Below, piece by piece: positions 1 through 61,110 of a DNA stretch of 64,000 nucleotides. Below the pieces are notes generated by a model. That model saw nothing but the letters and a program-made list of their open reading frames with translations. It was not told the origin of the DNA and searched no databases. The stretch is from an uncultured Bacilli bacterium. Its GTDB lineage: Bacteria; Bacillota_I; Bacilli_A; RF39; UBA660. Positions within the stretch are counted from its first letter, which is position 1, and every line of letters begins with the position of its first letter. Both the position numbers and the translations under genes were made by a program. The stretch is from assembly GCA_944358265.1 (NCBI GenBank), contig CALVQR010000001.1, positions 5,042 to 69,041 of the forward strand, in the 5' to 3' direction.

Positions 1-433
1 CATTACAAATTGAATCGTTCAAATATCTTAACTGAGCTGTGGTTTGTCTACAACTATTAAACTTTTTACCATCAACAAATGAAACAGAATTAACAACAAA
101 ATGATTATGCAAACATTTCGTATTTAAATGCGTTGTAACAATCACTTCATACTTATCACCCCACATTTCATTTGCAAGTTGAATGCCAATTTCATGGGCT
201 TGGCTAGGACTAACTTCTCCTTCTTTAAATGATTGATATCCATGATATCCTAATACACCACCTGTTTTATTAAAACTCTTTTTAGTTCGATTCATTTGTT
301 CAAAAGCATATTTTTCATCGCAGTTAATTCCTGTTACAAAAAAAGACTTTTCTGTTTTATCTGTATTAGTTGCATAATTGATTGTCGATTGTAAGCTGTT
401 AAATGTTTTATCTTTATTTTTGACGTATTCCAT
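1..433 (-). CDS. Mobilization relaxase, MobA/VirD2-like relaxase domain. N-terminal part only; the gene runs off the window start.
   Basis: Reverse-strand translation from an ATG near 433 gives MEYVKNKDKTFNSLQSTINYATNTDKTEK...HLNTKCLHNHFVVNSV. This has the HxDTxHxHxHxV-like 3-His relaxase motif and an N-terminal INYxxNxxKTE block typical of Pfam Relaxase (PF03432) proteins. It lies 15 nt downstream of mobC. Confidence 0.75.
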   Translation of the reverse strand, partial: MEYVKNKDKTFNSLQSTINYATNTDKTEKSFFVTGINCDEKYAFEQMNRTKKSFNKTGGVLGYHGYQSFKEGEVSPSQAHEIGIQLANEMWGDKYEVIVTTHLNTKCLHNHFVVNSVSFVDGKKFNSCRQTTAQLRYLNDSICN

Positions 434-452
434 AGTAGATTTTAAGTTAGAA

Positions 453-815
453 TTAATTTTCCATAATTTTGTTACTGCTATATATATCACCAACTTTTTC
501 TAACTTAATTAACTTATTTATTTCTAAAATGTTTTTATCTAATTCGTCTTTATAACTATTTAAATATTTTTGATTAATATATCCTGTTTGATTTGCAATT
601 TTTGCTATCTGATTAATATTAACTCCTATTCGTCGCATTTCATTAATTAGATGAGATAATTTTAGATTAAGTCTAACATTTGGAATATATCCATCAATCA
701 TACCTCTTAAAAATTCAGATGGAGTTATTCCTAAATCATCACTCTTTTTTCTTAATTTTTGTAATTGTTCATAGCTTAATCTAAAATTAATTTGTCTTGT
801 CTTCACTTGATTCAT
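453..815 (-). CDS. mobC: Mobilization protein MobC (relaxosome accessory, ribbon-helix-helix-like)
   Basis: 120 aa with INFRLSYEQLQKL...GITPSEFLRGMI, matching the MobC family signature (RxxFRLTxxE...SEYIR). Sits immediately upstream of the relaxase. Confidence 0.7.
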   Translation of the reverse strand: MNQVKTRQINFRLSYEQLQKLRKKSDDLGITPSEFLRGMIDGYIPNVRLNLKLSHLINEMRRIGVNINQIAKIANQTGYINQKYLNSYKDELDKNILEINKLIKLEKVGDIYSSNKIMEN

Positions 816-934
816 AATTCACTTCTGATATCTCCACCATGTTTCTTTTACTTACAACACAAAGACACATTATAAAAACTCCAAATAGGACACCTATAAA
901 TAATCCAATTATAAAAAATAGCAATTCACTCATA
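812..934 (-). CDS. Small hydrophobic peptide (about 40 aa, one TM helix) translationally coupled to mobC
   Basis: Reverse-strand ORF MSELLFFIIGLFIGVLFGVFIMCLCVVSKRNNGGDIRSEL. Its stop overlaps the mobC start in an ATGA arrangement, and it has a GAAGG RBS-like motif upstream. Coordinates are approximate. Confidence 0.3.
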
Positions 935-973
935 TAATTACCTTCTTTCTTTCAAATTTATTTAAGGGGATTG

Positions 974-1019
974 GGGTGAAACCCCATATTAGGAAAATAT
1001 GCACACTTTTTTGTGTGCT
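974..1019. promoter_or_regulatory. Candidate oriT / relaxosome binding region: two short inverted repeats upstream of mobC
   Basis: GGGGTgaaACCCC (974-986) and GCACACttttttGTGTGC (1002-1019) form the only GC-rich hairpins in a 430-bp AT-rich non-coding gap 5' of mobC-relaxase. This is the usual oriT position in MobC/MobA modules. Confidence 0.35.
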
Positions 1020-1076
1020 ATACTTTTCCATTGCTTGCTATAAAACAAGAAAACATAATATTACACCCTAAATATT

Positions 1077-1244
1077 TAATCTTCATTAATATTTTTTATT
1101 TCAAAACTAATTTCTACTATGCTGTCATCAATTTCATCTAATAAAAAATCCATTGCAAGTTCCATCACTTCCAAATTATTTTCTGCTTCTAAAACAAATT
1201 CATTAACATTTTTAGATATTAATTTAACTAAATATTTGTTCATA
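1077..1244 (-). CDS. Small acidic hypothetical protein (about 56 aa)
   Basis: Reverse-strand ORF MNKYLVKLISKNVNEFVLEAENNLEVMELAMDFLLDEIDDSIVEISFEIKNINED. Tightly packed after the 1253..1579 gene. Coordinates approximate. Confidence 0.25.
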
Positions 1245-1252
1245 TAAAAACC

Positions 1253-1579
1253 TCATCTTTCTAATTTATTTTTATTTTTTCTTTCATAAGTTAAAGTTGA
1301 TAAATACTCATTTACAGATTCTCTTATGTCATCATTAATACCCAAATCATTTTTTAACCAATCATCATACAAAGTATCTAAAGGATATTCACATTTATTT
1401 AATTTCTTAATTTGTTCATCACTAAAATATCTTGAATTAGGATCAAAAAGATATGTAATTTCTTCTTTTATAGTTGTTTCATAAGATTTATCAATAATAT
1501 AAGTAGGTGTTTGTTTTTTTAAATTATTAATATATGCTTCATATTCTTTAGATATCTTTTCATATAATTTTTCTCTCAT
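1253..1579 (-). CDS. Hypothetical protein (108 aa) of the mobile module
   Basis: ORF track; no recognisable motif. Co-oriented and tightly spaced with the element ssb. Confidence 0.45.
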   Translation of the reverse strand: MREKLYEKISKEYEAYINNLKKQTPTYIIDKSYETTIKEEITYLFDPNSRYFSDEQIKKLNKCEYPLDTLYDDWLKNDLGINDDIRESVNEYLSTLTYERKNKNKLER

Positions 1580-1604
1580 ATTTTATTAATTAATAGAGAT
1601 GATA

Positions 1605-1958
1605 TTATCTATCATCTCTATCTGAATTATCTTTTTCTTGGGTACGACTTGACAAAAATGTTACTTTTTCAGCTACAATCACCATAGAATTTTTTCTTTC
1701 TCCATCTTTTTCGTAAGTATCAGTTTCAACTCTTCCTTTTACTCCAATTATGTCGCCTTTTTTACAATATTCTGCTGTGTTTTCAGCAATACCATTCCAT
1801 AATGTACATTTTATAAAATCTGTTTCATATACACCGTCTGCATTCTTATAATTTCTAGGAATAGCTAGAGTTATATTTGTTACTTTTTTCCCACTTTCTA
1901 ACTCATTAACTTCAGGATTTGAAGTTAATCTTCCTACTAATACTGTTTGATTCAACAT
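1605..1958 (-). CDS. ssb: Single-stranded DNA-binding protein, element-borne copy
   Basis: LVGRLTSNPEV...TDFIKCTLWNGIAEN...KKGDIIGVKGRVETDTYEKDGERK is a canonical SSB OB-fold. The acidic tail ends DRDDR without the usual terminal PF/IF. Confidence 0.8.
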   Translation of the reverse strand: MLNQTVLVGRLTSNPEVNELESGKKVTNITLAIPRNYKNADGVYETDFIKCTLWNGIAENTAEYCKKGDIIGVKGRVETDTYEKDGERKNSMVIVAEKVTFLSSRTQEKDNSDRDDR

Positions 1959-1960
1959 AT

Positions 1961-2275
1961 TTAATCACTCTCCTTTTTTATATATTTTTTTCTATTTTGA
2001 ATCAATTCTTCATAATAATTTTTTTGTATTTCTTTTTCTTCAATATTACATAATAATAAGAAAATAAGTTGTGATGCCTCAAATGGAAATAATCTTAATT
2101 CAGCACTTCCATCGTCTTTTAAGTATGTATATTTTATTAATTTATTATATAAGTTATTTGAGTTAATATCTTCTTCTTGAAAATCATCTTTACAATCTGT
2201 AAGATTTACTAGTTTATTAAAATAATTTTTATCCACTATTAATCGTATAGTTGGAACTTTTCTCTCTTTTTCCAT
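1961..2275 (-). CDS. Hypothetical protein (104 aa)
   Basis: ORF track; no recognisable motif. Confidence 0.4.
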   Translation of the reverse strand: MEKERKVPTIRLIVDKNYFNKLVNLTDCKDDFQEEDINSNNLYNKLIKYTYLKDDGSAELRLFPFEASQLIFLLLCNIEEKEIQKNYYEELIQNRKKYIKKESD

Positions 2276-2290
2276 TTTTATATCCTTTCT

Positions 2291-2920
2291 TTAAAAATCT
2301 TTTTTTTCAATTAAAGTTGCTATGAATACAACTTGTTTATTTGTTCCCGATATACAAGTTATCAATGATATATCGGATTCATTTGTTAGTTTTAAGCTAA
2401 TATTCCCAGTTTTATCTACCTCGTAAATATTAGTTATTTCATAAATATATTTAACATTGTTATAGTAAAAAAATATTTTATCTTTCATACCTAATTTATG
2501 TAATTTATTAAAATAAGCATTACTTGCGTTACCAGAGTGTCCTGCTAAAATTACATGACTATTGCTACTACTATTTGGAAAAATAGTTTCATCTAAGATT
2601 TCTACATTGTATTTAACATTATTAAGAGGATCAGTTATATCAACCAATCCTCTTTTAAAGTTAATTTTTGGTATTTCTAAGACTGCAATGTATGTAACTG
2701 TTGGTGTTTTTCCTACTTCCTGTTTTGTTTCTATGTTATTTATTTGTTCTTTTTCTTCTTCAAAAAAAACTTCAATTGCATTTTCTTCTTCAAGAAGCAA
2801 ATTTTTTTCAGATTCTTGTTTATTAATCCATAAAAAAAGACTCCCAACAATTAGTAGAAGTCCTATTCCAATAATTAATTTATTTTTTCTTTTTATTTTT
2901 AATAGTTTCATATATTCCAT
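2291..2920 (-). CDS. Sortase family transpeptidase (class B-like, N-terminal membrane anchor)
   Basis: N-terminal TM (LIIGIGLLLIVGSLFLWI), catalytic His context HVILAGHSG and TLxTC-type cysteine motif ISLITCISG. Immediately downstream of, and overlapping, a sorting-signal-bearing adhesin gene. Confidence 0.7.
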   Translation of the reverse strand: MEYMKLLKIKRKNKLIIGIGLLLIVGSLFLWINKQESEKNLLLEEENAIEVFFEEEKEQINNIETKQEVGKTPTVTYIAVLEIPKINFKRGLVDITDPLNNVKYNVEILDETIFPNSSSNSHVILAGHSGNASNAYFNKLHKLGMKDKIFFYYNNVKYIYEITNIYEVDKTGNISLKLTNESDISLITCISGTNKQVVFIATLIEKKDF

Positions 2921-5666
2921 AACCTAAGATTCCAATTCCACAAACAATGCCAATTACATATATAAAATCAAAAATACTTTTATTAGATTCAGTATTAGGA
3001 ACTTCTACTTTTAATTCATTAAGCATGGTCGCTTTAATTACTTCACCATTTTCTTTAATTTCAAAAGGCATTTTTTCAGTATTCAAAGTATAGCCCTCTG
3101 GGGCTTCTTTTTCTATGATATAGTACTTACCATATTTTAAATTTTCAATTACGATTTTACCTTTCTCATCAGTTCTACCACTAAACACTAATTCATTATT
3201 TTCAGTATATATTTCGATTAATGTGTTTGGTAGTGGGTTCCCTGTTGAAAAATCTAACTTTGTAAATTCTAATGTACCTTTAATTATTTCATCAGTCATA
3301 TTTGATTTAATAATTTCACCATCTTCTTTAATTTCAAAGTACATTTTTTCAGGATTTAAAAGATAACCCTCTGGGGCTTCTTTTTCTATGATATAGTACT
3401 TACCATATTTTAAATCTTCAATTATTACTTTACCATTTTCATCTGTTTTACCACTAAATATTAGTTTATCATTATCGGTATATACTTCAACTAATGTATT
3501 AGGTAATGGTTCTCCTGTTGAAATATCAGTTTTTGTAAATTCTAATATACCTTTTTTAAGTTTGTTAGTTAGATTTAATGATTCAGTCACAATTTCTGTT
3601 TTGTTATCAATTTCAGTTAATTCAATTTTATGTTCTTCTAAATCAATAACATATCCATCGATAGTTTTTGTTTCTTTTACTACGTATCTGCCTAAGAACA
3701 AGTCATTAAAAATGGCTTTACCGTCTTTATTTGTAACAACTGTTTGAATTAAATCTCCCTTTTTATAATGAAGAACACCATCTAAAGTAATTATATCTTC
3801 ATCAGCATATAACGAAAATTCTATATTTTCTAATTTTAAATTATTATCATAATGAAAACTATTATCTTCAATTATAAATGTTTCACCAGTTTTTTCTATT
3901 TCAATTTTACCCTTTATTTTTTTATTAGAAAATTTAACTTCAATATATTGACCAAAATCGTCATCATCAACTATATTTGAGTTTTCATCAATATTAAAAA
4001 TAACTCCATCTGTATTAATAACATAACCATCAGGAGTTGTTAGTTCTTCAATTTTATAACTACCACTATTTAAAGGATAAGCTGTAATAAACTCTCCATT
4101 TTCATCTGTTTTAAATTCACAAATTGTTTCTTTATCTGGATATGTAACATTTTGACAAACATAATCATTTGTTTTTAAATTTTTAATTTTAAAAGTAACC
4201 CCTTTAAAAGGAATAGAAAGTCCAGAATCCTCATCAACTTTCACTAATTTTAATTTTGCAGTGATTTCTGCATTAGAGAAAACCTTATTAATAGTTTTAC
4301 CTTCTTCACGAACTTCAAAGTGATAATCTTCAATCATTTCGTATCCAGATGTAGTAGTTAATTGTTTTAAAACATAACTTCCATATGGCAATGTAAAATA
4401 TAACTTTCCTTCTTCATCAGTTATATCTTCAAAAACTTTTTCTCCACTAGAATCATATATAGCAAATTTAGCGCCTACTTCTGGAGTCATAATTTCAGTT
4501 TTATCAGTCGCATAAACCTTTGTAAATTCAAAACTTCTCTTTATTACTTCCTCAAAGACGTCAACATTAACTAATAAATGATTTTCATCAATTGTAAAAT
4601 TATATTTTTGTGTATCTAGTGTATAACCTAAACTCGGTGTTATTTCTCTTAGATAGAACTTACCTAATTTAGGTAAATAATCGCTTATTGCATAAGAATT
4701 CTCATCTGTTGTCAAAGTAGTAATCAATTCATCACTTGAGGCATCATATACCCCATATATCGCTCCTTTTAATGTTGCCTCTCCTTGAGGCTTTACTGTT
4801 CCATTATCGACATCTTTTTTTATAATTTCCACTTTACCGCCCACTACTTTTAAATTGATTTTATAACTTATTGGATCATAAGAACCAACACGCATAACAT
4901 TTTGAGTGTTTTCTTTAAAATACACAACTGGAGGTGTACTATATTTTGTATCAGATTTTGTTAAAGTTATCTGACCATTTCCTACACCAGTTGCTTTAAT
5001 GCTTAATGAATTATCACTAATACTCGCATTTACATTAGATTGATTAGAAACTTTAAAATTATTTAATACACCGTTACTGTCGTTTAAAGTAATTGTATTT
5101 CCAATTGGAATAGTAATATTAGATGTATTAAAATTAGGTGCTTTATAATGATTAGCTACTAAGCTTTCAATTTCAGCGATTTCCGAAGCATATAACCCAT
5201 CATTTCTTGTTCCATTTAACCCATTTGTGAAATAAAAATCTCCATTTGGCTCTGCTGTTCTCCAAATTAATATTTGCGTGATATAATACCATTTTGCATC
5301 ATTATGATTTCCATATGAATAGCCATAATAAGCCAACAAACTAATTCTATCCCATTGCTCTTTTGACATGTTTAAAACCAATTCGTAGTCATCCCTAGCT
5401 ACATTATAAACATAATTATTATCAATGTTTACAAAAGGTTGCAAACAATAAACAAACGCATTATCTTCACTACGTCTTAGAAATCGTCCTTGTTGGTAAT
5501 GAACTTTCCCATTTGGTTCTACCTTATTAATATAAATATTTGGAATATATTCACTTGGCCATATTGCTTGACCAATATATTGTTCCGCATTAACTGTAGT
5601 CATACCAGTTAGTGCTATAAATCCAGTTAAAATAACTGAAAATAAAAACATTAATTTCTTTTTCAT
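2880..5666 (-). CDS. Cell-wall-anchored surface adhesin: signal peptide, N-terminal thioester-domain-like module, tandem Cna-B/prealbumin-like repeats, C-terminal sorting signal
   Basis: Signal peptide MKKKLMFLFSVILTGFIALTGMTTVNA. Candidate thioester pair Cys74 in VYCLQPF and Gln131 in YITQILIW (TQxxxW motif). Two near-identical repeats of about 90 aa (GTLEFTK(T/L)D(I/F)STG(E/N)PLPNTL...KYGKYYIIEKEAPEGY). C-terminus VPNTES, then hydrophobic stretch, then KNKKKK. Confidence 0.7.
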   Translation of the reverse strand: MKKKLMFLFSVILTGFIALTGMTTVNAEQYIGQAIWPSEYIPNIYINKVEPNGKVHYQQGRFLRRSEDNAFVYCLQPFVNIDNNYVYNVARDDYELVLNMSKEQWDRISLLAYYGYSYGNHNDAKWYYITQILIWRTAEPNGDFYFTNGLNGTRNDGLYASEIAEIESLVANHYKAPNFNTSNITIPIGNTITLNDSNGVLNNFKVSNQSNVNASISDNSLSIKATGVGNGQITLTKSDTKYSTPPVVYFKENTQNVMRVGSYDPISYKINLKVVGGKVEIIKKDVDNGTVKPQGEATLKGAIYGVYDASSDELITTLTTDENSYAISDYLPKLGKFYLREITPSLGYTLDTQKYNFTIDENHLLVNVDVFEEVIKRSFEFTKVYATDKTEIMTPEVGAKFAIYDSSGEKVFEDITDEEGKLYFTLPYGSYVLKQLTTTSGYEMIEDYHFEVREEGKTINKVFSNAEITAKLKLVKVDEDSGLSIPFKGVTFKIKNLKTNDYVCQNVTYPDKETICEFKTDENGEFITAYPLNSGSYKIEELTTPDGYVINTDGVIFNIDENSNIVDDDDFGQYIEVKFSNKKIKGKIEIEKTGETFIIEDNSFHYDNNLKLENIEFSLYADEDIITLDGVLHYKKGDLIQTVVTNKDGKAIFNDLFLGRYVVKETKTIDGYVIDLEEHKIELTEIDNKTEIVTESLNLTNKLKKGILEFTKTDISTGEPLPNTLVEVYTDNDKLIFSGKTDENGKVIIEDLKYGKYYIIEKEAPEGYLLNPEKMYFEIKEDGEIIKSNMTDEIIKGTLEFTKLDFSTGNPLPNTLIEIYTENNELVFSGRTDEKGKIVIENLKYGKYYIIEKEAPEGYTLNTEKMPFEIKENGEVIKATMLNELKVEVPNTESNKSIFDFIYVIGIVCGIGILGYGIYETIKNKKKK

Positions 5667-5675
5667 AAACCCTCC

Positions 5676-5700
5676 TTAAATTTCTCTAAAAAAAAGAACC
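5676..5700 (-). terminator. Rho-independent terminator after the 5703..6335 gene
   Basis: The reverse strand reads CAACCCtaaGGGGTTC followed by T8. Confidence 0.5.
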
Positions 5701-5702
5701 CC

Positions 5703-6335
5703 TTAGGGTTGTAATTCAAAAAACTCAAAATCTTCTCCTAAATATTTTCCTGAGTAACTTACTACATTGTTACATTTAAAACCTCCACTGTGTGTTTGCA
5801 AATATTCATTACCGTATTCTTGGCATTTTAATAAACAGTCATTTTCGTTTGAACAATATTTACTTTCATCTAAATTAATACCAAAATCTACTGTTTGCCA
5901 TTTCCATGCTGGGGAATTATAATAATCATATTCTGATATTCCCAATTTTTCCCACTCTTTTAATTCTTTTGAAGGTGTTGTAACATCCTCTGAAATACTA
6001 TTTGAAGAAATATTTTCATTTTTTTCACTTTTATTTATTATTTTATCATTTTTGTTAGTACTAGGCTGCTCTTGTATAGAATCATTATTTTCATTTTCTT
6101 TAATATTAATATCTTTGTCATTGTTTTGATTATCATTTAAATTATTTTCTTTATCTTCATCAGCTTTAATTATTTCTTTACTAGGTTTTTCATTAATTGT
6201 CAAATCAGATATATTACTTTTATTATCCTTTAAATAAAAGACATATATAAAACAGCTAACAATTATTACCAAGATAACTAAAATCATTATAATAACCTTC
6301 TTCATATTTCCACTCCTTTTTAAATTATATAGCAT
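5703..6335 (-). CDS. Membrane-anchored hypothetical protein with N/D/K-rich low-complexity linker and Cys-rich C-terminal domain
   Basis: N-terminal TM (VIIMILVILVIIVSCFIYVFYL). C-terminal region has six Cys (CSNENDCLLKCQEYGNE...FKCNN). Confidence 0.5.
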   Translation of the reverse strand: MLYNLKRSGNMKKVIIMILVILVIIVSCFIYVFYLKDNKSNISDLTINEKPSKEIIKADEDKENNLNDNQNNDKDINIKENENNDSIQEQPSTNKNDKIINKSEKNENISSNSISEDVTTPSKELKEWEKLGISEYDYYNSPAWKWQTVDFGINLDESKYCSNENDCLLKCQEYGNEYLQTHSGGFKCNNVVSYSGKYLGEDFEFFELQP

Positions 6336-6362
6336 AATAATTTATAAATTAAAAATATGTGA

Positions 6363-7190
6363 TTATCTTTCTCGATCATCTTTTTTCATGTTATTAAAAG
6401 TTTTAAGATTATCATTCCAATATTTATCATCATTTAACCAATCATAGTCATCATCATAAAGTGGAGAATCATTTTCAAATTTTTTAAAATTTAAATCTAA
6501 AGCCGACTTAAAATATCCATATTTATTTACAATTTCATTACCATCTTCATCTTTAAATTTATTACTTTTTACTTTATTAACAATATAATGAATTGACATG
6601 AATAACTGTTCTCTAGTATAACCTCTATTCAAGTAGTCACTAAATAAATTATCATAATAATTTAGATTATACTCATTACTATTTACATATCCATTTTTTA
6701 TTAATTCTTTTGTAAATATTGAATATTCATCACTATGTGATGTTTTATCTATTTTATCTATTAATTTATTAGTATTTATTATATTAGTATTTAATTGTTG
6801 TTGATTTTCCAATGTTGGACTATCCATAGGTGGAAAATCACATGTTGGATTGTTTTGACTCAAATACAAACTTTTAGGAAGATCATATACTATATATTTA
6901 TAAGTAAATAATCCTTTATTATCTTTTTGTTTTATTATTTCAATATATCCAGCATTTTTTAATTCATTTATTGCTGTTCTTATAGCCGAATAACTTTCCT
7001 TACATATGGATACTAAACCGTTAAATGAATAATCCCAATTTGGAGGTAAACTTATCATTTTACATAATAATCCAATTGATTTTAATGAAAGATTTTTATC
7101 ACGTAATATCTGATTGTTAACAATCGTAAAATTATTACTTCTCTTTATTTGAAATTCTGTTTTGTTGTTCATTTTTATACCTCCAATCAA
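6363..7190 (-). CDS. Putative plasmid/phage replication initiator (winged-HTH N-terminal domain)
   Basis: FTIVNNQILRDKNLSLKSIGLLCKMISL...SYSAIRTAINELKNAGYIEI resembles the HTH_36-type N-terminus of Firmicute Rep/DnaD-like initiators. Positioned between the partition genes and the cargo. Confidence 0.45.
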   Translation of the reverse strand: MIGGIKMNNKTEFQIKRSNNFTIVNNQILRDKNLSLKSIGLLCKMISLPPNWDYSFNGLVSICKESYSAIRTAINELKNAGYIEIIKQKDNKGLFTYKYIVYDLPKSLYLSQNNPTCDFPPMDSPTLENQQQLNTNIINTNKLIDKIDKTSHSDEYSIFTKELIKNGYVNSNEYNLNYYDNLFSDYLNRGYTREQLFMSIHYIVNKVKSNKFKDEDGNEIVNKYGYFKSALDLNFKKFENDSPLYDDDYDWLNDDKYWNDNLKTFNNMKKDDRER

Positions 7191-7210
7191 AAAAAGAGCT
7201 TGCCACAGCT

Positions 7211-8158
7211 CTATCTTTCACACTTATCACGTTCTTTTAGATGCCTACCATAAAATTCGCACGCTTTTATAACAAAGTCCTCATAATTATTTATCCTAAT
7301 ATTTTTGGGTACAACACTGCGAATTTTGTCTTCACTCAATTTGATTTTGGGGACTTGATTAGGTTTTTCTTGTTCCATAATTTCTCGTATTTTTTCTTCA
7401 TTAAGATTATTAGAATCACTTAATTTTCTAAATTCAATTGTTTGGGCATGACTGGGAGTTGATTCAGTATATCCAATAGAATCCAAAACTAACAATTGTT
7501 CATCCTTCTTTAAATATGATAATTCTACAGCTGGTCTTAGAGCTATAGATGGTGATTCTCCTAAAACAGAATTATCTACCATTTGCAATAATTCTGGAAT
7601 AAGTTCATTTAACCTAATATATCTATATACTTGGTTTTTACTTTCCCCAGCTTCTGCGCCTATTAATTCAGATGACAACTTATTTCCCACTGGGGAAGAA
7701 GTTAAATCTTGACGACTACCTTGATGTTTTATGGCATCAAGTTTCATTTTATATGCTTTTGCTTTTTCACTTGGTAAAATGAATTCACGATGCATATTTG
7801 AATCAACCATATAAATAATTGCTTCGTCATCTGACATATTTCTAACAATACATGGTATTGATTTGTTTCCAATAAGTTCTGAAGCTCTTTTTCTTCTATG
7901 ACCAGATATTATTTCATAACGTTCACCTTTTTCTCTTACAATAATAGGTTCTAGTACACCATTAGCATTAATACTCTCTTCCAATTTCCTAAGTTCATCA
8001 TTTTCTATCACTTTAAACGGATGATTTGGAAAACAATCAATCATAGATAGATCAATATTTTCTATCTTTTCTTTTTGTTTATCATCACGTTGCTCTTGTG
8101 TAGTAAAGAAATCATCTAGATTGAAATTGGGACGATCTATGTTGCTCTTTTTGTCCAT
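7211..8158 (-). CDS. parB: ParB-like partition/nuclease-domain protein (element copy)
   Basis: GVLEPIIVREKGERYEIISGHRRKRASELIG...IVRNMSDDEAIIYMVDSNMHRE is the ParB/Spo0J N-terminal box. Overlaps the parA 3' end. Confidence 0.8.
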   Translation of the reverse strand: MDKKSNIDRPNFNLDDFFTTQEQRDDKQKEKIENIDLSMIDCFPNHPFKVIENDELRKLEESINANGVLEPIIVREKGERYEIISGHRRKRASELIGNKSIPCIVRNMSDDEAIIYMVDSNMHREFILPSEKAKAYKMKLDAIKHQGSRQDLTSSPVGNKLSSELIGAEAGESKNQVYRYIRLNELIPELLQMVDNSVLGESPSIALRPAVELSYLKKDEQLLVLDSIGYTESTPSHAQTIEFRKLSDSNNLNEEKIREIMEQEKPNQVPKIKLSEDKIRSVVPKNIRINNYEDFVIKACEFYGRHLKERDKCER

Positions 8159-8942
8159 CTTCTAATACCTCTTTTGCAAAATTATTATAAGCTAAAGATA
8201 CTTTACTATTTTTATCATATGATAGAATACTTTCTCCTTGAGAAGTTGATTCTGCAACTTTAATTGCTCTAGGAATTTGTGTATTAAATAATTTAAATAC
8301 ATTACCATATGTTTCAGATAATTCTTTTCTAATATTTTTGGCTAAGTTTGTTCTTTCATCAACTAATGTTAATAAAATACCACCTACTTTTAAATCAGGA
8401 TTTATCTGTTTTCTAACTTTTAATACGGTTTGTAGTAAATGTCCCATACCCTTTGTAGCAAGAAATTGAGATTGAACAGGAATTATTACTTTATCTGAGC
8501 AAGCTAAGGCATTTATCGTAACCATACCAAGTGAAGGCATACAATCAATTAAAATATAATCGTACTTATCTTTTAGAGAACTTATTGAGTTTTTCATCGT
8601 ATATTCTCTACTCATTGCATTTACTAGACTAACTTCCATAGAAGATAATTCTAGATTTGCTGGAATAACATCTAATCCTTCAGCATGATGCAGTATAGCT
8701 TCATCAGCTTTTACTTCTCTATCAGAAACCGTTCTTTCCATAAGAGTTGCAATTGTAATAGGTATTTCATCCGTATTGTGCCATCCCATATAAGTTGTCA
8801 AATCACCTTGCGGATCTGCATCAATCAATAGCACCCTCTTACCTTTATTAGCAAGTGCCACTCCTAAACTAAAAGTTGTTGTTGTTTTTCCTACTCCTCC
8901 TTTTTGATTAGCAATAGCAATAACTTCACATTTCGGCATCAT
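8112..8942 (-). CDS. parA: ParA/Soj-type partition ATPase (element copy)
   Basis: Deviant Walker A KGGVGKTTTTFSLG and DADPQGDLT. Start moved to MMPKCEV, which sits behind an AGGAGGTGA RBS. Confidence 0.85.
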   Translation of the reverse strand: MMPKCEVIAIANQKGGVGKTTTTFSLGVALANKGKRVLLIDADPQGDLTTYMGWHNTDEIPITIATLMERTVSDREVKADEAILHHAEGLDVIPANLELSSMEVSLVNAMSREYTMKNSISSLKDKYDYILIDCMPSLGMVTINALACSDKVIIPVQSQFLATKGMGHLLQTVLKVRKQINPDLKVGGILLTLVDERTNLAKNIRKELSETYGNVFKLFNTQIPRAIKVAESTSQGESILSYDKNSKVSLAYNNFAKEVLEDGQKEQHRSSQFQSR

Positions 8943-9002
8943 TTCACCTCCTTTCTTTATATTTCCCACTTATCCACCCATTTTTTAATAAAAAAATTAA
9001 AA

Positions 9003-9030
9003 AAAAAAAGCACTTTAATCGTGCTAATAA
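9003..9030 (-). terminator. Rho-independent terminator after the 9032..9346 gene
   Basis: The reverse strand reads AGCACgattaaaGTGCT followed by a T11 run. Confidence 0.45.
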
Positions 9031-9031
9031 A

Positions 9032-9346
9032 TTATTTATAATAATTAAAATCAGATTTTTCCCATATGGATTCAAATTCATTTTCTATTTCATCTAAACT
9101 CATATTTTCAATTGCATACATATGAATTTTTATCCAATAATTATTTTTCTGTGTTCTAATAAGAAACTCATAATTATTTCTATCATATAATTCATATTCG
9201 TAAACATCAATATAATATTTAATTCCTTTTTTATCACTAATTTTTTTTTGGAAATATCTATTAGCATATGGTTCAACTTTAGGAACATCATATTCTATAT
9301 ATCCTGCATTAAATAGTACTTTAGCATTCATGTTATCACCTTTCAA
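9032..9346 (-). CDS. Hypothetical protein (104 aa)
   Basis: ORF track; overlaps the upstream metallophosphoesterase gene by 11 nt, so likely an operon. Confidence 0.45.
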   Translation of the reverse strand: MKGDNMNAKVLFNAGYIEYDVPKVEPYANRYFQKKISDKKGIKYYIDVYEYELYDRNNYEFLIRTQKNNYWIKIHMYAIENMSLDEIENEFESIWEKSDFNYYK

Positions 9347-10043
9347 ATTTTTTAATACTTTTGAAAATAAACTCTAATTTATCAATTTGTTTTTCTATAT
9401 GCCAATGTCCACAATACCATTTATCGTAATTTATTATTTCCTCTAATTGATTTAAAAATATTTCCATTTTCTTATCAATTTTTAATTGATTAAAGGCATA
9501 TATAAAGTTATCTTGTGGTTCATATTTTAATGGACAAGTATGAGATAATATAATATCGACATGTTTTCCTTTATATTTCTTTATTATATAATCTTTTTCT
9601 TCTTCTTTTAGCTGCTCATCTTTAAACCATTTATATCCATGTGTAATCCTATAATTTTTATCAACAGAATAAGCTCCTCCAACTACTAAAACGCTTTTAT
9701 TATCAATGTTATATAACTCACCATTTTTTGCAAATATTAAATTAGGATATTTATCTTCAATATAAACGTTTCCTCCAAACATTTTAGTTTCATGATAATT
9801 ACTTATATTTTCTGGTCTTTCCTCATGATTCCCTTGAATAAAAAAGATTTTTAGACTATACAAACTTAAAAATTCCTTTAAGCGATTGTCATGTTCGTTT
9901 AAAAAGTAATTAACTCCTGCATCCCCGAGAATAATAAGCATATCATCTTTTGAAATTTTTAAATTATTTAATCTCGAGAAATCTCCATGGGTGTCACCAG
10001 TAATATAAATCATAGTATCAACTCCATATTCACTATAAAACAA
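9336..10043 (-). CDS. Calcineurin-like metallophosphoesterase
   Basis: MIYITGDTHGD, ILGDAGVN, GNHE and GHWH motifs of the metallophosphatase fold. Confidence 0.65.
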   Translation of the reverse strand: MFYSEYGVDTMIYITGDTHGDFSRLNNLKISKDDMLIILGDAGVNYFLNEHDNRLKEFLSLYSLKIFFIQGNHEERPENISNYHETKMFGGNVYIEDKYPNLIFAKNGELYNIDNKSVLVVGGAYSVDKNYRITHGYKWFKDEQLKEEEKDYIIKKYKGKHVDIILSHTCPLKYEPQDNFIYAFNQLKIDKKMEIFLNQLEEIINYDKWYCGHWHIEKQIDKLEFIFKSIKKFER

Positions 10044-10109
10044 ATAAAAATAATATACAAATGTACAAAAAAACTAGTTTTCTACTAGTTTTACTTAACT
10101 TCAATCATG

Positions 10110-10400
10110 TTAGCCGAGGCAAGAGCATTCAGCACCTCCTGCATTCAAGTGGTTAGATATTACTAGTACATCAGGTGAGTTACCATAAGCACTTAATATT
10201 CTATTAACTCTTTCATTTGGAGTTAATGTTTCATCAACTTGTCTAATTAAGGTAGAATTAACTCCTAATTCTTTAAAGCGATTATTTAAATACTCTGCTA
10301 TTTTTAAAGCATATTCTTTCTCAACAATACCATTGCCACTAGCACCTGGATCGCTTCCCCCATGCCCAGCATCAATAACTATTTTTACATTATTATTCAT
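10110..10400 (-). pseudogene. N-acetylmuramoyl-L-alanine amidase (Amidase_3) catalytic domain, C-terminally truncated
   Basis: VKIVIDAGHGGSDPGA...VLVISNHLNAGGAE is the N-terminal half of a CwlD/Amidase_3 domain. The ORF stops about 80-100 aa short of a complete domain, exactly where plasmid-type gene content begins. Confidence 0.55.
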
Positions 10401-10606: not shown

Positions 10607-11296
10607 TTAATTTAATTTGTTTAACAATTCAAGCATAACATTTGCAATTTTTTTAGAACTATCTGCTAAGAAGTCTTCATAAGTGATTACATTATTATTA
10701 TTAGGTGTATCTGATATACTTCTAATTACTAAAAAAGGAATATTGCTTAAATAACATACTTGTGCAATAGAAGCACCTTCCATTTCAACACATAATGCAT
10801 TAAATTTATTATTTATTTTTTTACCCATTATATAATCTGTACAAAATATATCTCCTGATGCAATTACTCCACTGACTACATTAACATTATTAAAAGATAT
10901 TGATTTTGCCAATTTTACCAGATATTCATCAGAATCTATATATACTCCTACACCTGGAATATATCCTTTTTCATGATCAAAAGCAGTAATATCAAAATCA
11001 TGTTGTACTAATTTTTCGCCTATTACTATATCCCCAACATTTAATTTATCTGACACACTACCCGCCACACCTATATTAAATATATAATCAACCTTTATAT
11101 TATCAATTAATATTTGAGTACATCTTGCAGCATTTACTTTTCCTACACCACTTTCTACCATAACAACATAAATATTATTAATAAATGCTTCATAAAAAGT
11201 CAAATCAAATATAGTATATTCTTTTTTTATAATTAAGTATTTCTTTAATTCTAAAAGTTCTTCATTCATTGCAAATATTATCCCAACTTTTTTCAT
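10607..11296 (-). CDS. mtnN: 5'-methylthioadenosine/S-adenosylhomocysteine nucleosidase
   Basis: KVGIIFAMNEELLELK...GVAGS...FLVIRSISD is the Pfs/MtnN family. Start moved to MKKVGII behind a GGAGGA RBS. Confidence 0.8.
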   Translation of the reverse strand: MKKVGIIFAMNEELLELKKYLIIKKEYTIFDLTFYEAFINNIYVVMVESGVGKVNAARCTQILIDNIKVDYIFNIGVAGSVSDKLNVGDIVIGEKLVQHDFDITAFDHEKGYIPGVGVYIDSDEYLVKLAKSISFNNVNVVSGVIASGDIFCTDYIMGKKINNKFNALCVEMEGASIAQVCYLSNIPFLVIRSISDTPNNNNVITYEDFLADSSKKIANVMLELLNKLN

Positions 11297-11392
11297 ATTA
11301 ATCCTCCACACATGTATATTATAACTTATTATTTATAGATTTTACAAAAAAATATTTTACTGATATAATATGTAAGCAAAGAGGGATAAATT

Positions 11393-15485: not shown

Positions 15486-16286
15486 ATGTTATTATTAAAA
15501 TATTTAATTTTAGGAATAATTCAAGGATTTACAGAACCACTTCCAATATCTTCTAGCGGACACCTTAGAATATTTAAATCGCTTTTTAATAGTGAAGTAT
15601 TAAGTGATATGAATTTTGAAATTATTGTTAACTTTGGTTCTTTAGTTGCCATATTAATATTATATAGAAAAGAGATAACTAATATTATAAAAGACTTTTT
15701 TTGTTATATAAAAACTAAAGAAGAAAAATATAAAATCAATTTTAAATATGCATGGTTAATAGTTATTGGAACAATCCCTGCGGGAATTCTTGGATTGTTT
15801 GTAAAAGATTTTATAGAAACTTATTTTACTGCCAAACTAGTAGGTCTAATGCTTATTATTACTTCAATACTTTTATTTATGATTAAAGATATAAAAGGTA
15901 AAAAAGAAAAAAAAGATATGACTATTTTAGATGCATTAAAAATAGGTTTATTTCAAGTAGTTGCTCTATTACCTGGGATAAGTAGAAGTGGCGCAACTGT
16001 AGTTGGAGGAATGAAATCTAATTTAACTAGAGAAACAGCATTAAATTACTCTTTTATGTTATATATACCAATAAGTATTGCAAGTATGTTTTTAGGAGTT
16101 AGCGATTTATTAAATTCTGGATCTTTAAATGAATTATTAATTCCATATTTGGTAAGTATGATAGCCGCAGGAATAGTTACTTATTATGCTGCAAAATTAT
16201 TTATTAATGTCATGAAAAAAGGTAAATTAATTTACTTTTCAATATACTGCTTTATTGTAGGACTAATAACTTTTATAATATTTTAA
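15486..16286 (+). CDS. uppP: Undecaprenyl-diphosphatase
   Basis: GFTEPLPISSSGHL and SRSGATVVGG, the hallmark BacA/UppP motifs. Confidence 0.85.
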   Translation: MLLLKYLILGIIQGFTEPLPISSSGHLRIFKSLFNSEVLSDMNFEIIVNFGSLVAILILYRKEITNIIKDFFCYIKTKEEKYKINFKYAWLIVIGTIPAGILGLFVKDFIETYFTAKLVGLMLIITSILLFMIKDIKGKKEKKDMTILDALKIGLFQVVALLPGISRSGATVVGGMKSNLTRETALNYSFMLYIPISIASMFLGVSDLLNSGSLNELLIPYLVSMIAAGIVTYYAAKLFINVMKKGKLIYFSIYCFIVGLITFIIF

Positions 16287-16317
16287 AAAAAATAGCTTAA
16301 AAATTAAGCTATTTTTT

Positions 16318-16731
16318 TTAAAATCCACAATCGAGTTTTATTTCTGAAAAAAAATCTGTTTTGGTATATGGGCTTTTTGGATATATTATAATCATTGTAT
16401 TTTCTTTATCACAAGATTTATTTTTACTTTTAAAATTAGATATTTTTTCTTTATATTCATCACTATATTTTTCCATTTCAGTAAGATTAAACTTTAATCC
16501 AGTAGTTTCATATTTTTTCAAAAATTCTGCTACTTCTTCGTTTGTTTTACCATTTGAAATTTGTAAATAATAATATTCTGAATATAAGTTTTCACCCATT
16601 GAAGTTAAATCTCTAACTATTTTTTCCTCTTTTGATAATCTTAAATCTTTAGTAAGATAAAATATCAATAATCCTACAACAAATAAACCTATAATTATTA
16701 AAATAATACCTAATATTCTTTTCATATTCAT
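16318..16731 (-). CDS. Membrane-anchored hypothetical protein (paralog of 12136..12660)
   Basis: N-terminal TM. The C-terminus IIIYPKSPYTKTDFFSEIKLDCGF matches that of the 12136..12660 product. Confidence 0.5.
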   Translation of the reverse strand: MNMKRILGIILIIIGLFVVGLLIFYLTKDLRLSKEEKIVRDLTSMGENLYSEYYYLQISNGKTNEEVAEFLKKYETTGLKFNLTEMEKYSDEYKEKISNFKSKNKSCDKENTMIIIYPKSPYTKTDFFSEIKLDCGF

Positions 16732-16739
16732 AATAACAC

Positions 16740-17246
16740 CTATTCTATTATGTAATTTTCACTCTTATGTGGTTCTGTAAATAATAAATTTCTGTAATTT
16801 TGTTGCCTTAAAACTTCATAAATTACAATTGCAGCACAATTAGATAAATTAAGTGCACGAACATTTTTAGTCATTGGTATTCTCATACATTTATCTAAAT
16901 CATTTCTTAATATTTCTTTTGGAATTCCAGTACTTTCTTTTCCAAAAATCAAATATATATTTTCGTTAGTATTACTATAATCAAAAGAAGTATGTGGTTT
17001 TTTTCCATATCTTGTAAAATAGTAATAAGTTCCTTTATTTTTAGATTTAAAGTCATCAAAATTTTCATATACTTCATAATCTAATTTATCTAAATAATTA
17101 GCAGAACTTCTCTTTAAATACTTTTCTTCAAGAGAAAAACCAAGAGGTTTTATAAGATGTAATTTAGTCCCTGTTGCAACACATGTTCTCATTATATTTC
17201 CAGTATTTCCAGGAATTTCTGGTTCAAATAATACTATATTATTCAT
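16740..17246 (-). CDS. trmL: tRNA (cytidine/uridine-2'-O)-methyltransferase, SpoU/TrmL family
   Basis: NIVLFEPEIPGNTGNIMRTCVATG...GKESTGIP is the SPOUT fold. Start moved to MNNIVLFEP to avoid overlap with rubrerythrin. Confidence 0.7.
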   Translation of the reverse strand: MNNIVLFEPEIPGNTGNIMRTCVATGTKLHLIKPLGFSLEEKYLKRSSANYLDKLDYEVYENFDDFKSKNKGTYYYFTRYGKKPHTSFDYSNTNENIYLIFGKESTGIPKEILRNDLDKCMRIPMTKNVRALNLSNCAAIVIYEVLRQQNYRNLLFTEPHKSENYIIE

Positions 17247-17247
17247 T

Positions 17248-17787
17248 TTAATAGTTTTGTGCTTTTTTTTCAAAATAAGCTTGAGGATGTGCGCATACTG
17301 GACATACCTTTGGAGCTTCTTCACCTACGTATACATAACCGCAGTTACGACAAATCCATACAGTTTCTTCTCCTTTTTTAAATACCATATCATCTTCAAT
17401 ATTTCCAATTAATTTCATATATCTTTCTTCGTGATGTTTTTCTATTTTACCAACTTCTTCAAAAAGATATGCAATTCTGTCAAATCCTTCTTCTCTAGCT
17501 TCTTTAGCAAAAGTTGCATACATATCTGTCCATTCATAATTTTCACCTGCGGCCGCATCTTTTAAGTTTTCTAATGTTGAAGGAATATCCCCACCATGTA
17601 GTTCTTTAAACCACATTTTAGCATGTTCTTTTTCATTACCTGCAGTTTCTTCAAAAAGTGCTCCTATTTGCTCATATCCTTCCTTTTTAGCCTTTGAAGC
17701 ATAATAAGTATATTTGTTTCTTGCTTGACTTTCTCCTGCGAAAGCTGCAAGTAAATTTGCTTCTGTTTTAGTTCCTTTTAGTTCCAT
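17248..17787 (-). CDS. rbr: Rubrerythrin
   Basis: Diiron ExxH pairs ([16 protein letters not shown]) and a C-terminal rubredoxin-like CRNCG...CPVC domain. Confidence 0.9.
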
Positions 17788-17930
17788 AAATTATACCTCC
17801 TTACATCCTTATTAGGACTATTATAATTATACACTATTTTTTATTTTAATTCATTAGTTTATTTGAAATTTTTATAATATTTTATTATTTCGAATAATAT
17901 ATGATAAAATGAATATATTTTATTGAAAGG

Positions 17931-24835: not shown

Positions 24836-25297
24836 TTAAAATGCTATATCGTCATCACTAATTTCGATTGAATCTCCAAAATCAGCAAATACTTCTTCAC
24901 TTACATCAGTTGTTTGATTGCTATTATTATCGAAAGCAAAATCTGATGGTGTTACATTTTCTTGCATTCTATTTTGTGATTGTGCTTTTGATTCTAAAAA
25001 TTGAACATTATCCGCTACTACATCAGTAGTATAAATTCTTTGCCCATCTTTTTCGTAACTACCTGTTTGAATTCTACCTTCAACTGCAACTAAACTACCC
25101 TTAGAAACATATTTTTTAACATTTTCTGCTTGTTTTCTCCAAACAACAATATTTATAAAATCTGTTTCCCTTTCACCATTTTGATTTTCAAATGGTCTAT
25201 TAACTGCTAATGTAAATCTTACACTAGGTATGTTTGAACTTGTATATCTAAGTTCAGGATCTCTCGTTATTCTTCCAATTAACAGTACTTTATTCAT
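24836..25297 (-). CDS. ssb: Single-stranded DNA-binding protein (chromosomal copy)
   Basis: OB-fold [14 protein letters not shown] with acidic tail ending DDDIAF. Sits between rpsF and rpsR. Confidence 0.9.
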
Positions 25298-31503: not shown

Positions 31504-33492
31504 TTATTCTAAACTAGTAAAATCTTCATCATCACTTTTAACTTCTCTATCATTTTTTACTTCTTCATAATTTTTTCCTTGAAAATTATTAAGTTTATCT
31601 TCCTGTTTTTTTGATAACACTTTGTCTATATTACTAATTTTTTTCTTTCTCTTTAATAAAATTATTGTAACTATTCCTGCTGTTATTAACGTTAACAAAA
31701 TTATTATCATTATTATTAATATATTGTTTGATTTTTCTATATCTATAATATATGTTCTTATGTCCCCATTTTCAGCAGTTACTTTTATTGTTATCTTACT
31801 TCCATCTTTTAAATTTTCATTACCAGTTATTTTATATTCTGCAGTTTCATCATCAAGCACTATACTTAAATTAAGTTCATCTTCTTTTGTTTTTACTGTA
31901 TATCTATATACATTTTTAGCAAAATCTATACTATGATTTTTAATTGTCAATGATTTTATAAAATTGTTTGTTGATAATTTTTCCCCTTCGTTTTTTCTAA
32001 CAACAGTTATCTTATATTCACTTTTTTTACCATTTTCTGCTTCTACTGTTATTGTGAATATATTTTCACCAATTTTTAAATTTTCATCTCCAGTAATTGT
32101 AACTTTAGACTTATCTACATTAGGTATTGCTTCTATTTTAAAAGTTTCAACATCATACTCAACATTTACTTTATATTCTAATGTTTCAGGATCAAAATCT
32201 ATCTTACCAGTACTTAAATTTATTTCTTTTAGAGTAGAATCACTATCTCTTCCATCTTTTCTATTAATATTTAATGTATATGTTCTAAGTTCTCCTTTTT
32301 CATTTTGTACTTGTATATAAACAGTATTATTACCTAAAGATAAATTTACAGTCCTTGGTCCTGTCCCATTTACAAAACTAGCTTTATTATCATCAAGAGT
32401 TGCAGATATCGTTACACTTTCAACATCATTTTCTACATCTACATTATATGTTGTTGTATTTTTACTAAAATTTATTTTCCCATTACTTATTGATAATGAT
32501 TTCAAATAATTATTATCACTTCTGACATCTTGTCTTGTAATATTTATTGTATATGTTTTTACGCTACCATCTTCTGCGGTTACATTTATTCTAAATGTAT
32601 TTAACCCATAATTTAAATTAAATTTACCTAATGATCCAGAAACAGAAGCTTTTGTATCATCTTTAGTGGCGCTTATTTGTGTTTCTGATTCAGTTGTAGT
32701 CAAATTATATGTTGTTTTATTTTTATCAAATGAAATATCAGTATTAGTAACAATAAGTGATGATAGATTATTATTTTTACTTCTATTATCAGGTCTTGTT
32801 ACATTAATTGTATACGTTCTCGTCTCTCCAGTTTCACTAGTTACATTTATTCTAAATATATTTGTCCCATAGTTTAATGAAACATTACCTATATTCCCAG
32901 TTAAAGTTGAATTTGAATCCATTTTAGTTGCACTTATTACAGCACTGTTACTATTAATTGTAGTTGTATAATTTAATGTATTAGAATTAAAATTAATACT
33001 TCCTCCGCTAATAGATAATGAAGATAATCTATTTTCATTTGATCTTATTCTTATACTAGCATTAACATTGCCCGCATTATAACTATTATATGATGTATCT
33101 GATGCTTCTATATCTCTAAGTCCTACTGTATATGTTTGATTTGATGTTGCATTACTAGGAAGTGTTACAGTTAGTGTTCCTAATGTTGTTGTTGATGCAA
33201 AACCATTTAAATTTCCTAAAACAAAACCTAAATTACTTCCTGGAGTATAATTAGAAAAATTATTTGAAACAGTAAATCCATTATATGTTATTTCTTCACT
33301 AAAATTATAATGTGCTGATACCCCATTTAATGTAACACCAGATGGTGTTGCACTTATTGTACACTGCACTTGTGCTCCTGCACTACTTGTACTAGGACAA
33401 CTTATATTTACACTAAAACCTGCAGCACTTACCTTGATAGGTAAAACAATGATAATTCCTAGTAAAACCAATACTCCTATTTTATTCTTCAT
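31504..33492 (-). CDS. Membrane-anchored surface scaffold: signal peptide, cohesin-like N-domain, five or six cadherin-like beta-sandwich repeats, C-terminal TM and charged tail
   Basis: N-terminal roughly 140 aa (FSVNISCPSTSSAGAQVQCTISATPSG...YNFSEEITYNGF...LGTLTVTL) resembles a cohesin module. Repeats of about 95 aa (LSSLSISGGSINF...YGTNIFRINVTSETGETRTYTINVTR) are cadherin-like. C-terminal TM IIMIIILLTLITAGIVTIILL, then KRKKK. Confidence 0.5.
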   Translation of the reverse strand: MKNKIGVLVLLGIIIVLPIKVSAAGFSVNISCPSTSSAGAQVQCTISATPSGVTLNGVSAHYNFSEEITYNGFTVSNNFSNYTPGSNLGFVLGNLNGFASTTTLGTLTVTLPSNATSNQTYTVGLRDIEASDTSYNSYNAGNVNASIRIRSNENRLSSLSISGGSINFNSNTLNYTTTINSNSAVISATKMDSNSTLTGNIGNVSLNYGTNIFRINVTSETGETRTYTINVTRPDNRSKNNNLSSLIVTNTDISFDKNKTTYNLTTTESETQISATKDDTKASVSGSLGKFNLNYGLNTFRINVTAEDGSVKTYTINITRQDVRSDNNYLKSLSISNGKINFSKNTTTYNVDVENDVESVTISATLDDNKASFVNGTGPRTVNLSLGNNTVYIQVQNEKGELRTYTLNINRKDGRDSDSTLKEINLSTGKIDFDPETLEYKVNVEYDVETFKIEAIPNVDKSKVTITGDENLKIGENIFTITVEAENGKKSEYKITVVRKNEGEKLSTNNFIKSLTIKNHSIDFAKNVYRYTVKTKEDELNLSIVLDDETAEYKITGNENLKDGSKITIKVTAENGDIRTYIIDIEKSNNILIIMIIILLTLITAGIVTIILLKRKKKISNIDKVLSKKQEDKLNNFQGKNYEEVKNDREVKSDDEDFTSLE

Positions 33493-33493
33493 A

Positions 33494-36397: not shown

Positions 36398-36493
36398 AAA
36401 AACTTCTCCTATTATCATTATTATTATACAATATTTTTTTATTTTCATAAATATATTAATTAAAATTTGATATAATTATTATGGTGATTATAT

Positions 36494-59735: not shown

Positions 59736-60142
59736 TTACATCATCTCCTAACAAGATATTTAATATCTATATTATATCACGAAAAAAGTCGCATTTTTTT
59801 GCAACTTATATTTCTAAATCAAAGTCATCATGATCTTTATGTTTATTATCTTCTTTACTCCAATTATAATCTTCTTTTATGTCATCTATGGTTTTATCAC
59901 TAAATATCCTATGTTCGTATAAGCCTTTTGAAAATTTTTAATAATCTTCACGTTCTTTGTCTTTGACGAATATTTTATGTTTGATAAAATTGATTAATCT
60001 ATCAAATAAATCTTTAAAGTAATCTACTAGTTCTTCAAGATGCTTATTATCTTTTTTTAACTCTTTAATCTCTTTATTTTCGATATTTTTTGATAAAGTA
60101 TCTACTTTAAGAGATATTGCTTCATTGTTTTCGGTTAGTATT

Positions 60143-61025: not shown

Positions 61026-61110
61026 TTTTTATCCCTCCTCATAAAATTTTGTCCAGTCAAAATTAAATGTTCCCCACTAGTCTTTTTGTTGTGTAAACAC
61101 TACATTCCCC

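Follow-up and report, generated by a model that had tools for sequence, protein, structure and literature searches.

A probable Tn1549/CTn4-type conjugative element at a recurrent serine-recombinase landing site in an amidase gene of an uncultured Bacilli bacterium

Host genes split by an element with a large serine recombinase, and rebuilt when that element excises precisely, are familiar from Bacillus, where skin divides sigK and SPbeta divides spsM. Among conjugative systems, Tn1549 itself uses a tyrosine integrase, and the Clostridium perfringens plasmid pCW3 carries adhesin and sortase genes alongside its conjugation system. We analysed a 64,000-nucleotide stretch of DNA from an uncultured Bacilli bacterium (contig CALVQR010000001.1, positions 5,042 to 69,041; ‘the window’), in which a mobile element at positions 1–10130 abuts the 5′ half of a split amidase gene. 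The junction is a real, site-specific integration, and the element is probably one arm of an integrative and conjugative element (ICE) of the Tn1549/CTn4 kind. The element itself is of an ordinary kind; the noteworthy part is its landing site, a single bacterial attachment site (attB) shared by many unrelated serine-recombinase elements in other gut bacteria (ICEs, TnpV-type defence or restriction islands and phage-like elements). An earlier reading of the window from its letters alone (the sequence-only reading) missed the recurrent large-serine-recombinase site at the point of truncation.

In Clostridioides difficile, CTn2, CTn5/Tn6103 and CTn7 are integrated conjugative elements of 29–85 kb; one large serine recombinase, encoded at one end, is considered responsible for their excision, their flanking repeats are only short, and excision regenerates the target (PMC3158075). 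Excision has been shown experimentally for the serine-recombinase ICEs of C. difficile and for TnpV/TnpX-type elements, TnpX having a 2-bp target site (PMC3158075). CTn4 (CD1091–CD1118, which includes CD1107, CD1110 and CD1112) is a 30.5-kb C. difficile element that is experimentally conjugative (PMC3158075).

The way of working proposed here for the window element resembles that of CTn2, CTn5 and CTn7, a likeness by description with a recombinase that is inferred for the window, whereas the target sites differ. As with skin and SPbeta, the element interrupts a host gene that exact excision would make whole again; unlike those elements, which are degenerate or prophage and are excised on a developmental cue, the occupants of the amidase site are many and apparently mobile, and about half of the sampled amidase sites are empty. 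The window element shares with the Tn1549/CTn4 type, conjugative transposons known from Clostridia and enterococci, a MobA/VirD2-type relaxase with MobC, a DUF6017-like helix–turn–helix (HTH) protein and chromosomal integration, and its closest relatives have the order PcfB, coupling protein, VirB6, PrgI, VirB4. It differs from that type in having ParA/ParB, SSB and an adhesin–sortase module upstream of the relaxase, in an identity of only 23–40% to Tn1549-like Enterococcus genes and in the serine (not tyrosine) recombinase that is expected for it. The mobilizable transposons Tn4451/Tn4453 and Tn6104–Tn6106 (TnpX/TnpV) are matched by two other occupants of the site, L086 and L087 (L numbers denote the loci compared), in which a TnpV gene comes first and a large serine recombinase last; these are site neighbours and not relatives of the window element, which is much larger and has a different backbone.

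The junction is defined by three features.

10131..10136, no strand assigned: junction; homology with L081 ends at 10131, GGTG core at 10133–10136
10131..10400, minus strand: host Amidase_3–LysM autolysin gene, 5′ part of 90 codons (PF01520 model positions 1–78 of 174)
10112..10130, minus strand: element-side recombination arm (attP′ half-site), GAATGCTCTTGCCTCGGCT, unique in the window

The open reading frame (ORF) called as amidase (10110–10400) covers only positions 1–78 of the 174 in the Amidase_3 model. Its last seven codons (AECSCLG) belong to the element, as intact genes and opposite junctions show. The sequence-only reading had thus rightly seen a truncated amidase gene at the junction, and preferred no side between a genuine integration, which is borne out here, and an assembly join; its position of 10.05–10.1 kb has to be moved to 10131–10136. 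The core GGTG is common to intact sites and to both types of junction and sits in the codons SNHLNAGG/G-GAEV. To the right lie the host core genes mtnN (10607–11311), DnaB, an rpsF-linked SSB, YchF, ParB/Noc, ParA and NrdD.

Two comparisons fix the element–host boundary. In the related chromosome L081/L082 the amidase 5′ part (91% DNA identity) and the mtnN flank (82%) are retained and a different element follows the fragment; blastn of the window against L081 is collinear up to …AATGCAGGAGGTGCT (window 10131) and the sequences are unrelated beyond. L085 comes from another host, in which the amidase fragment is 69% identical in protein, and from a separate metagenome assembly; its DNA alignment with the window crosses the junction and reaches 10067. 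The L085 arm, GGATGCCCTTGCCTCGGCT, is conserved with that of the window and again stands directly after the amidase 5′ half; the order amidase-5′, DUF7695, ParA, ParB, HTH_36, adhesin, sortase, SSB, MobC, relaxase has the same orientation as in the window. The same element family at the same amidase position in an independent assembly makes a mis-join very unlikely. Three amidase 5′ fragments (P0001–P0003) that are 97–99% identical to that of the window carry other tails (AEFSYHYII, ATFLGGD and AF), therefore very close relatives of the host hold different elements at the site; the AF tail is that of L081, a related species with 82% DNA identity in the flank. The window contains neither a C-terminal amidase half nor a tRNA nor a second attachment arm, and an Rfam scan of the window gave nothing at gathering thresholds, hence no tRNA target.

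The break point recurs far beyond this locus. On the 5′ side, the 96-aa fragment was compared with its 120 closest homologues (62–99% identity): 115 are cut after SNH[LI]NAGG and only three have the intact continuation …G-GAEVIYALRN, in a set clustered at 90% identity, which may inflate the split count because each tail forms a new cluster. The element-derived tails fall into at least eight recurrent classes; the xxC.CLG tail occurs in seven of the homologues, the window included. A search with the 3′ half returned 44 matches, all of them fragments of at most 116 residues, and those that reach the junction begin GG-GAEV. When metagenomes were scanned with the 3′ half, 65 loci could be classified, of which 34 are split at this very point and 31 are intact.

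Wherever the sequence upstream of a split locus was long enough to tell (18 loci: L084 and 17 from the metagenome scan, in which the gene ends 45–3214 nt before the 3′ half), there is a Resolvase + Recombinase + Zn_ribbon gene just before the amidase 3′ half. These site-linked serine recombinases are 46–95% identical to each other. In L168 a complete 8.9-kb element lies between both amidase halves, with inverted-repeat arms TGCCTACATTC and GAATGTAGGCA, and the tail class seen most often (GDSHCVT) is likewise complementary to the most frequent arm of the far side. The break point of the window is that of L084, L086, L168 and the 17 further recombinase-bearing loci. The window shows one arm of the element's attachment site (attP; 10112–10130), which is kept in L085; inverted arms are verified for L168 and the GDSHCVT class.

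The occupants are diverse: islands of TnpV and recombinase with restriction or defence cargo (L086, L087), an HTH/ImmA/PcfJ/methylase element (L081), contigs classified as viral in IMG/VR (L172, L173) and, in L085, the window's own ICE family. The site thus offers a natural set of serine recombinases with one attB and diverged attP arms, useful for the study of how target recognition evolves and for engineering, and in low-G+C gut Firmicutes a conserved autolysin gene becomes a place where defence islands and conjugative elements can be expected. Our literature search found no description of this amidase target in a limited library, which is not proof of novelty.

Some neighbouring loci show further events. 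A second recombinase site in the same amidase gene is seen in 12 of the 44 C-terminal fragments, which end …YTVKSGDTIFMGNNE. In L178 (6783–17870) the amidase gene is in three pieces, with a recombinase at 6783–8444, a middle fragment at 10001–10276, a DpnII/methylase element whose end is formed by a second serine recombinase at 15670–17235, and the LysM remainder at 17256–17870; none of the 177 loci besides L178 has the motif. In L086–L089 (34–3390) a large serine recombinase lies about 8 kb upstream of the split amidase gene and is followed directly by the apparent 3′ portion of a gene for a P-type ATPase (Hydrolase and Cation_ATPase_C only), which suggests another host gene split by a recombinase. 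A distant serine recombinase (32–34% identity) stands immediately upstream of an intact amidase gene in L099 (8108–10231), and L134 (3875–5600) has two tandem intact amidase paralogues.

An intact homologue of the target (L125, 9743–10753) encodes 336 aa with an Amidase_3 domain and three LysM repeats; an N-terminal signal peptide is not evident by eye. The CwlD model gives 74 bits against a cut-off of 221, so identity with the sporulation amidase was rejected, and no link to sporulation was found among the core genes of the window, in the literature or with amidase models. The target is a predicted generic peptidoglycan amidase. The insertion parts model positions 1–78 from the remainder of the catalytic domain, therefore no activity is expected of the split gene. 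An open 3′ half (170–376 codons, like intact genes) persists in 33 of the 34 split loci, which fits young or reversible insertions and is no proof of a regulatory role. In L084 (9677–9925) an in-frame TAG interrupts the 3′ half (…DDVNQ*KNNWENYAE) on a contig of about 4× coverage; it reflects either decay of the split gene or a sequencing error.

The element side of the window comprises the following features, listed from the left edge.

2..433, minus strand: relaxase, first 144 codons, running off the left edge (PF03432 MobA/VirD2-like nuclease domain, E 8e-36)
453..815, minus strand: relaxosome accessory protein NikA/MobC (PF21983, E 1.5e-14; PF05713, E 3e-8)
814..933, minus strand: 39-aa membrane ORF upstream of mobC; frame conserved in the alignment of related elements
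966..1040, minus strand: candidate origin of transfer (oriT), non-coding; inverted repeats GCACAC-N6-GTGTGC and GGGGT-N3-ACCCC
1076..1243, minus strand: 55-aa ORF, no family match
1253..1579, minus strand: DUF3848 protein (PF12959, E 2e-22), syntenic in L001, L002 and L077
1605..1958, minus strand: element SSB (PF00436, E 3e-27)
1961..2275, minus strand: 104-aa ORF, no family match
2291..2920, minus strand: sortase, class C/D-like (PF04203, E 1e-14; NCBIfam sortase family matches)
2880..5666, minus strand: surface adhesin, 928 aa (PF17802, E 2.5e-87, six stretches; PF08341 TED)
5703..6335, minus strand: membrane or secreted protein, 210 aa; sub-threshold matches only; positional equivalent in L004 and L085
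6363..7190, minus strand: initiator-like winged-helix protein (PF13730 HTH_36; PHROG replication-initiation/DnaD-like families, E 1e-19)
7211..8158, minus strand: ParB-like partition protein (PF02195, ParB_N, E 2e-20)
8112..8969, minus strand: ParA-like ATPase (PF13614, AAA_31, E 9e-58), 85% identical to L002 ParA
9032..9346, minus strand: accessory ORF, 104 aa, no family match; not conserved in L002 or L085
9336..10043, minus strand: metallophosphoesterase, junction-proximal accessory gene (PF00149, E 2e-13; PHROG metallophosphoesterase, E 2e-31)
10067..10092, minus strand: AT-rich hairpin with a 9-bp stem and a T-run, just inside the element end

To assign the element, relatives were collected by a scan with the relaxase fragment (one genome per species, 365 relatives). 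The closest relaxases are those of L001, L002 and L077 (63–73% identity) and L004 (67%); the elements L001–L005, whose relaxases are 63–73% identical, all have a coupling protein. The order parA-parB-HTH-adhesin-sortase-ssb-DUF3848-mobC-relaxase is complete in L001, L002 and L077; in L004 the HTH gene stands at the front and the order is otherwise largely kept. On the 3′ side of the relaxase the closest relatives carry DUF3801/PcfB, a coupling protein (T4SS-DNA_transf, VirD4-type, E 7e-66) and ArdC, the coupling protein lying 2 kb downstream of the relaxase in L001–L004. The VirB4 of L004 matches NF045971 (‘CD1110 family’) at 995 bits, and a CD1110-family VirB4 with a CD1112-type VirB6 and PrgI is also found in L020, L021, L028 and L034; the VirB6 CD1112 and PrgI homologues are ordered as in the Tn1549-like region of an Enterococcus faecium plasmid. 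All relaxase relatives with more than 60% identity and available downstream sequence are of the coupling-protein type. As the window relaxase clusters with this set, the element is best read as one arm of an ICE and not as a plasmid-type mobilizable module.

The window further shows the relaxase (MobA/VirD2 nuclease domain) with MobC/NikA that marks ICEs of the Tn1549/CTn4 kind, and chromosomal integration with a defined element–host junction (by comparison with L081 and L085, with core genes to the right). Megablast of window 1–10110 against 72,556 plasmids (PLSDB) gave no match, and the best plasmid relaxase is at most 46% identical. The sequence-only reading had called the segment a plasmid-type mobilizable module and recommended comparison with the pCW3/pCP13 family; neither stands, since there is no nucleotide match to a plasmid and the closest syntenic relatives are chromosomal and carry a coupling protein and VirB4. 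Unlike pCW3/pCP13 of C. perfringens, the window element is chromosomal, has a site-specific junction and encodes a MobA/VirD2-type relaxase, and it shows neither nucleotide nor close protein similarity to those plasmids. The question of integration versus mis-assembly is settled for a genuine, site-specific integration, and the element moves from the plasmid-like to the conjugative class.

Several observations weigh against an ICE at this site. Conjugative capacity and recombinase type are read from relatives that are 63–73% (relaxase) or about 70% (L085, DNA) identical, and the window junction is known here from assembled sequence alone. A second relaxase group (at most 54% identity) consists of small relaxase–ParB–serine-recombinase elements without a secretion system. 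Tn1549-type transfer genes (queries: coupling protein, VirB4, relaxase, PcfB, ArdC and Tn1549-region proteins) were not found within 10 kb of the recombinase in the 34 split loci (3′ side), and no complete ICE spanning both amidase halves was recovered in the split-locus sample. As a link between a window-like arm and a recombinase, L171 was rejected: its arm scores 10 against 9 for unrelated arms, which is background. That arm has GCAAG-GCA-TCAG in common with the complement of the window arm, and the ORF that ends just upstream has the ARNPYGR-GK tail of the L094 and L127 recombinases. The far-end junction pattern (reverse complement of the window arm) had no match in viral contigs.

An integrative mobilizable element, with relaxase, oriT, partition genes and a serine recombinase, lacking a type IV secretion system and dependent on a helper for transfer, is the alternative that survives best, and we regard it as unlikely. 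Relaxase and MobC are the sole transfer genes visible in the window, many relaxase relatives (L009, L019, L031, L041 and others) belong to the small relaxase–ParB–recombinase elements, and small serine-recombinase elements dominate the sampled amidase site. However, the relaxases of the small elements are at most 54% identical and come without the ParA-ParB-HTH-adhesin-sortase-SSB module, whereas every relative above 60% with downstream sequence runs into PcfB and the coupling protein. A decayed or immobilized remnant, in which the recombinase or far end has been lost, the element is fixed and the amidase is permanently inactivated, is distinctly improbable. The far end of the element does lie outside the window, and the related L084 has its in-frame stop in the amidase 3′ half; but 16 of 16 visible element genes are intact ORFs, the arm is conserved with L085 and the oriT-like block with L085 and L002, and the 3′ half that stays open in 33 of the 34 split loci points to insertions that are young or reversible. 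An assembly error, by which a shared repeat linked the chromosome to a plasmid or some other replicon, could appeal to the plasmid-like look of the partition and initiator-like genes and to a junction seen in assembled sequence, but is scarcely credible. The break falls exactly at a recombination core that is used in well over a hundred assemblies independent of one another; in L085 this family of elements is likewise joined to the same amidase position, oriented as in the window; the arm is not repeated elsewhere in the window, and there is no plasmid match.

Taking the element at 1–10130 as one arm of a Tn1549/CTn4-kind ICE, we infer from its relatives that its own recombinase and secretion genes lie to the left of the window, and that it is active. 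The large serine recombinase would be the last gene of the element, and the unseen left part would also hold PcfB, the coupling protein, VirB6, PrgI, a CD1110-family VirB4 and accessory genes. At the far end, an arm resembling AGCCGAGGCAAGAGCATTC would be followed by GGTG and then by the amidase 3′ half (GG-GAEVIYALRN… and the LysM repeats). The recombinase would join the inverted-repeat attP to the conserved amidase attB via the GGTG core, without duplication of the target, and excision would precisely restore the amidase gene (attB …AATGCAGGAGGTGGNGANGGTGCTGAAGT…) and yield a circle. ParA, ParB and the initiator-like protein may act as a maintenance module that helps to keep the circle. Relaxase and MobC would nick the oriT-like site; SSB, the coupling protein and the CD1110-type secretion system would carry out transfer, and the sortase-anchored thioester adhesin, as a surface module, may promote cell contact.

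A more far-reaching idea is that the amidase gene is a dedicated reversible landing pad, at which one recombinase clade with at least eight classes of attP arm recognizes a single attB of about 40 bp, a second recombinase group uses the site in the first LysM repeat (L178), and ICEs, restriction or defence islands and phage-like elements stack. As both halves of the gene remain intact, excision could then reactivate an autolysin that lacks a signal peptide in part of the population, with lysis or DNA release as conceivable purposes; we consider this idea as a whole unlikely.

The element has 26.2% G+C and the rest of the window 24.6%, the window being about 25% throughout. Every family-supported ORF of at least 50 aa in 1–10043 is on the minus strand, and transcription runs from high to low coordinates, with the metallophosphoesterase first and the relaxase N-terminus last. 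Family matches confirm in this respect the sequence-only reading, which had described an all-minus-strand mobile-element module contiguous with core chromosome. It had also seen no integrase in the window and suspected one to the left; indeed, family scans found no recombinase, coupling protein or secretion gene in 1–10130. Its statement that the element ssb and parAB duplicate the chromosomal copies needs correction: the element SSB is 39% identical to the chromosomal SSB (24836–25297), ParB 42% to the chromosomal ParB/Noc and ParA 41% to the chromosomal ParA, identities that mark them as distant paralogues and not duplicates. Of its ‘Rep’ (6363–7190), an initiator-like HTH_36/DUF6017-like protein is upheld and a replicase is not proven; the N-terminal region is 38–43% identical to DUF6017 proteins of the Tn1549-like region of Enterococcus plasmids.

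The 75-bp block at 966–1040 is near-invariant in the window, L002, L077 and L085, with diverging flanks, and lies upstream of mobC–relaxase, a typical position; position and conservation make it a candidate oriT. The positional equivalent in L085 of the neighbouring 39-aa ORF (814–933) has a weak DUF3789 match. The adhesin (2880–5666) is laid out as a signal peptide, a thioester domain, six SpaA/Cna-B-type repeats and a C-terminal membrane anchor, and is syntenic in L001, L002, L004 and L085. The true start of ParA is probably a few codons inside the ORF 8112–8969; exact-protein look-ups with MobC, mtnN and ParA gave no match, the ORF starts of mtnN and ParA being probably too long. The metallophosphoesterase (9336–10043) has, besides its good match to a phage metallophosphoesterase family, a weak, partial match to PADLOC PDC-S10, a candidate defence family (25 bits), and may be defence or counter-defence cargo. 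The hairpin at 10067–10092 is at most a possible weak terminator, being not significant against shuffles (z −0.9) and missed by a terminator scan; L085 has an equivalent ACTAGT hairpin with T8.

Two regions elsewhere in the window stand apart from the element. At 60000–62200 the GC skew changes sign near 61 kb, with genes on the minus strand to the left and on the plus strand to the right; a LexA-like ORF (61282–62121) opens the plus-strand block, and the window showed no dnaA. Immediately past the chromosomal parAB genes, at 31504–36448, lie two large minus-strand ORFs, one of 662 aa with no family match and the other (33494–36448) encoding a 984-aa leucine-rich-repeat, internalin-like protein.

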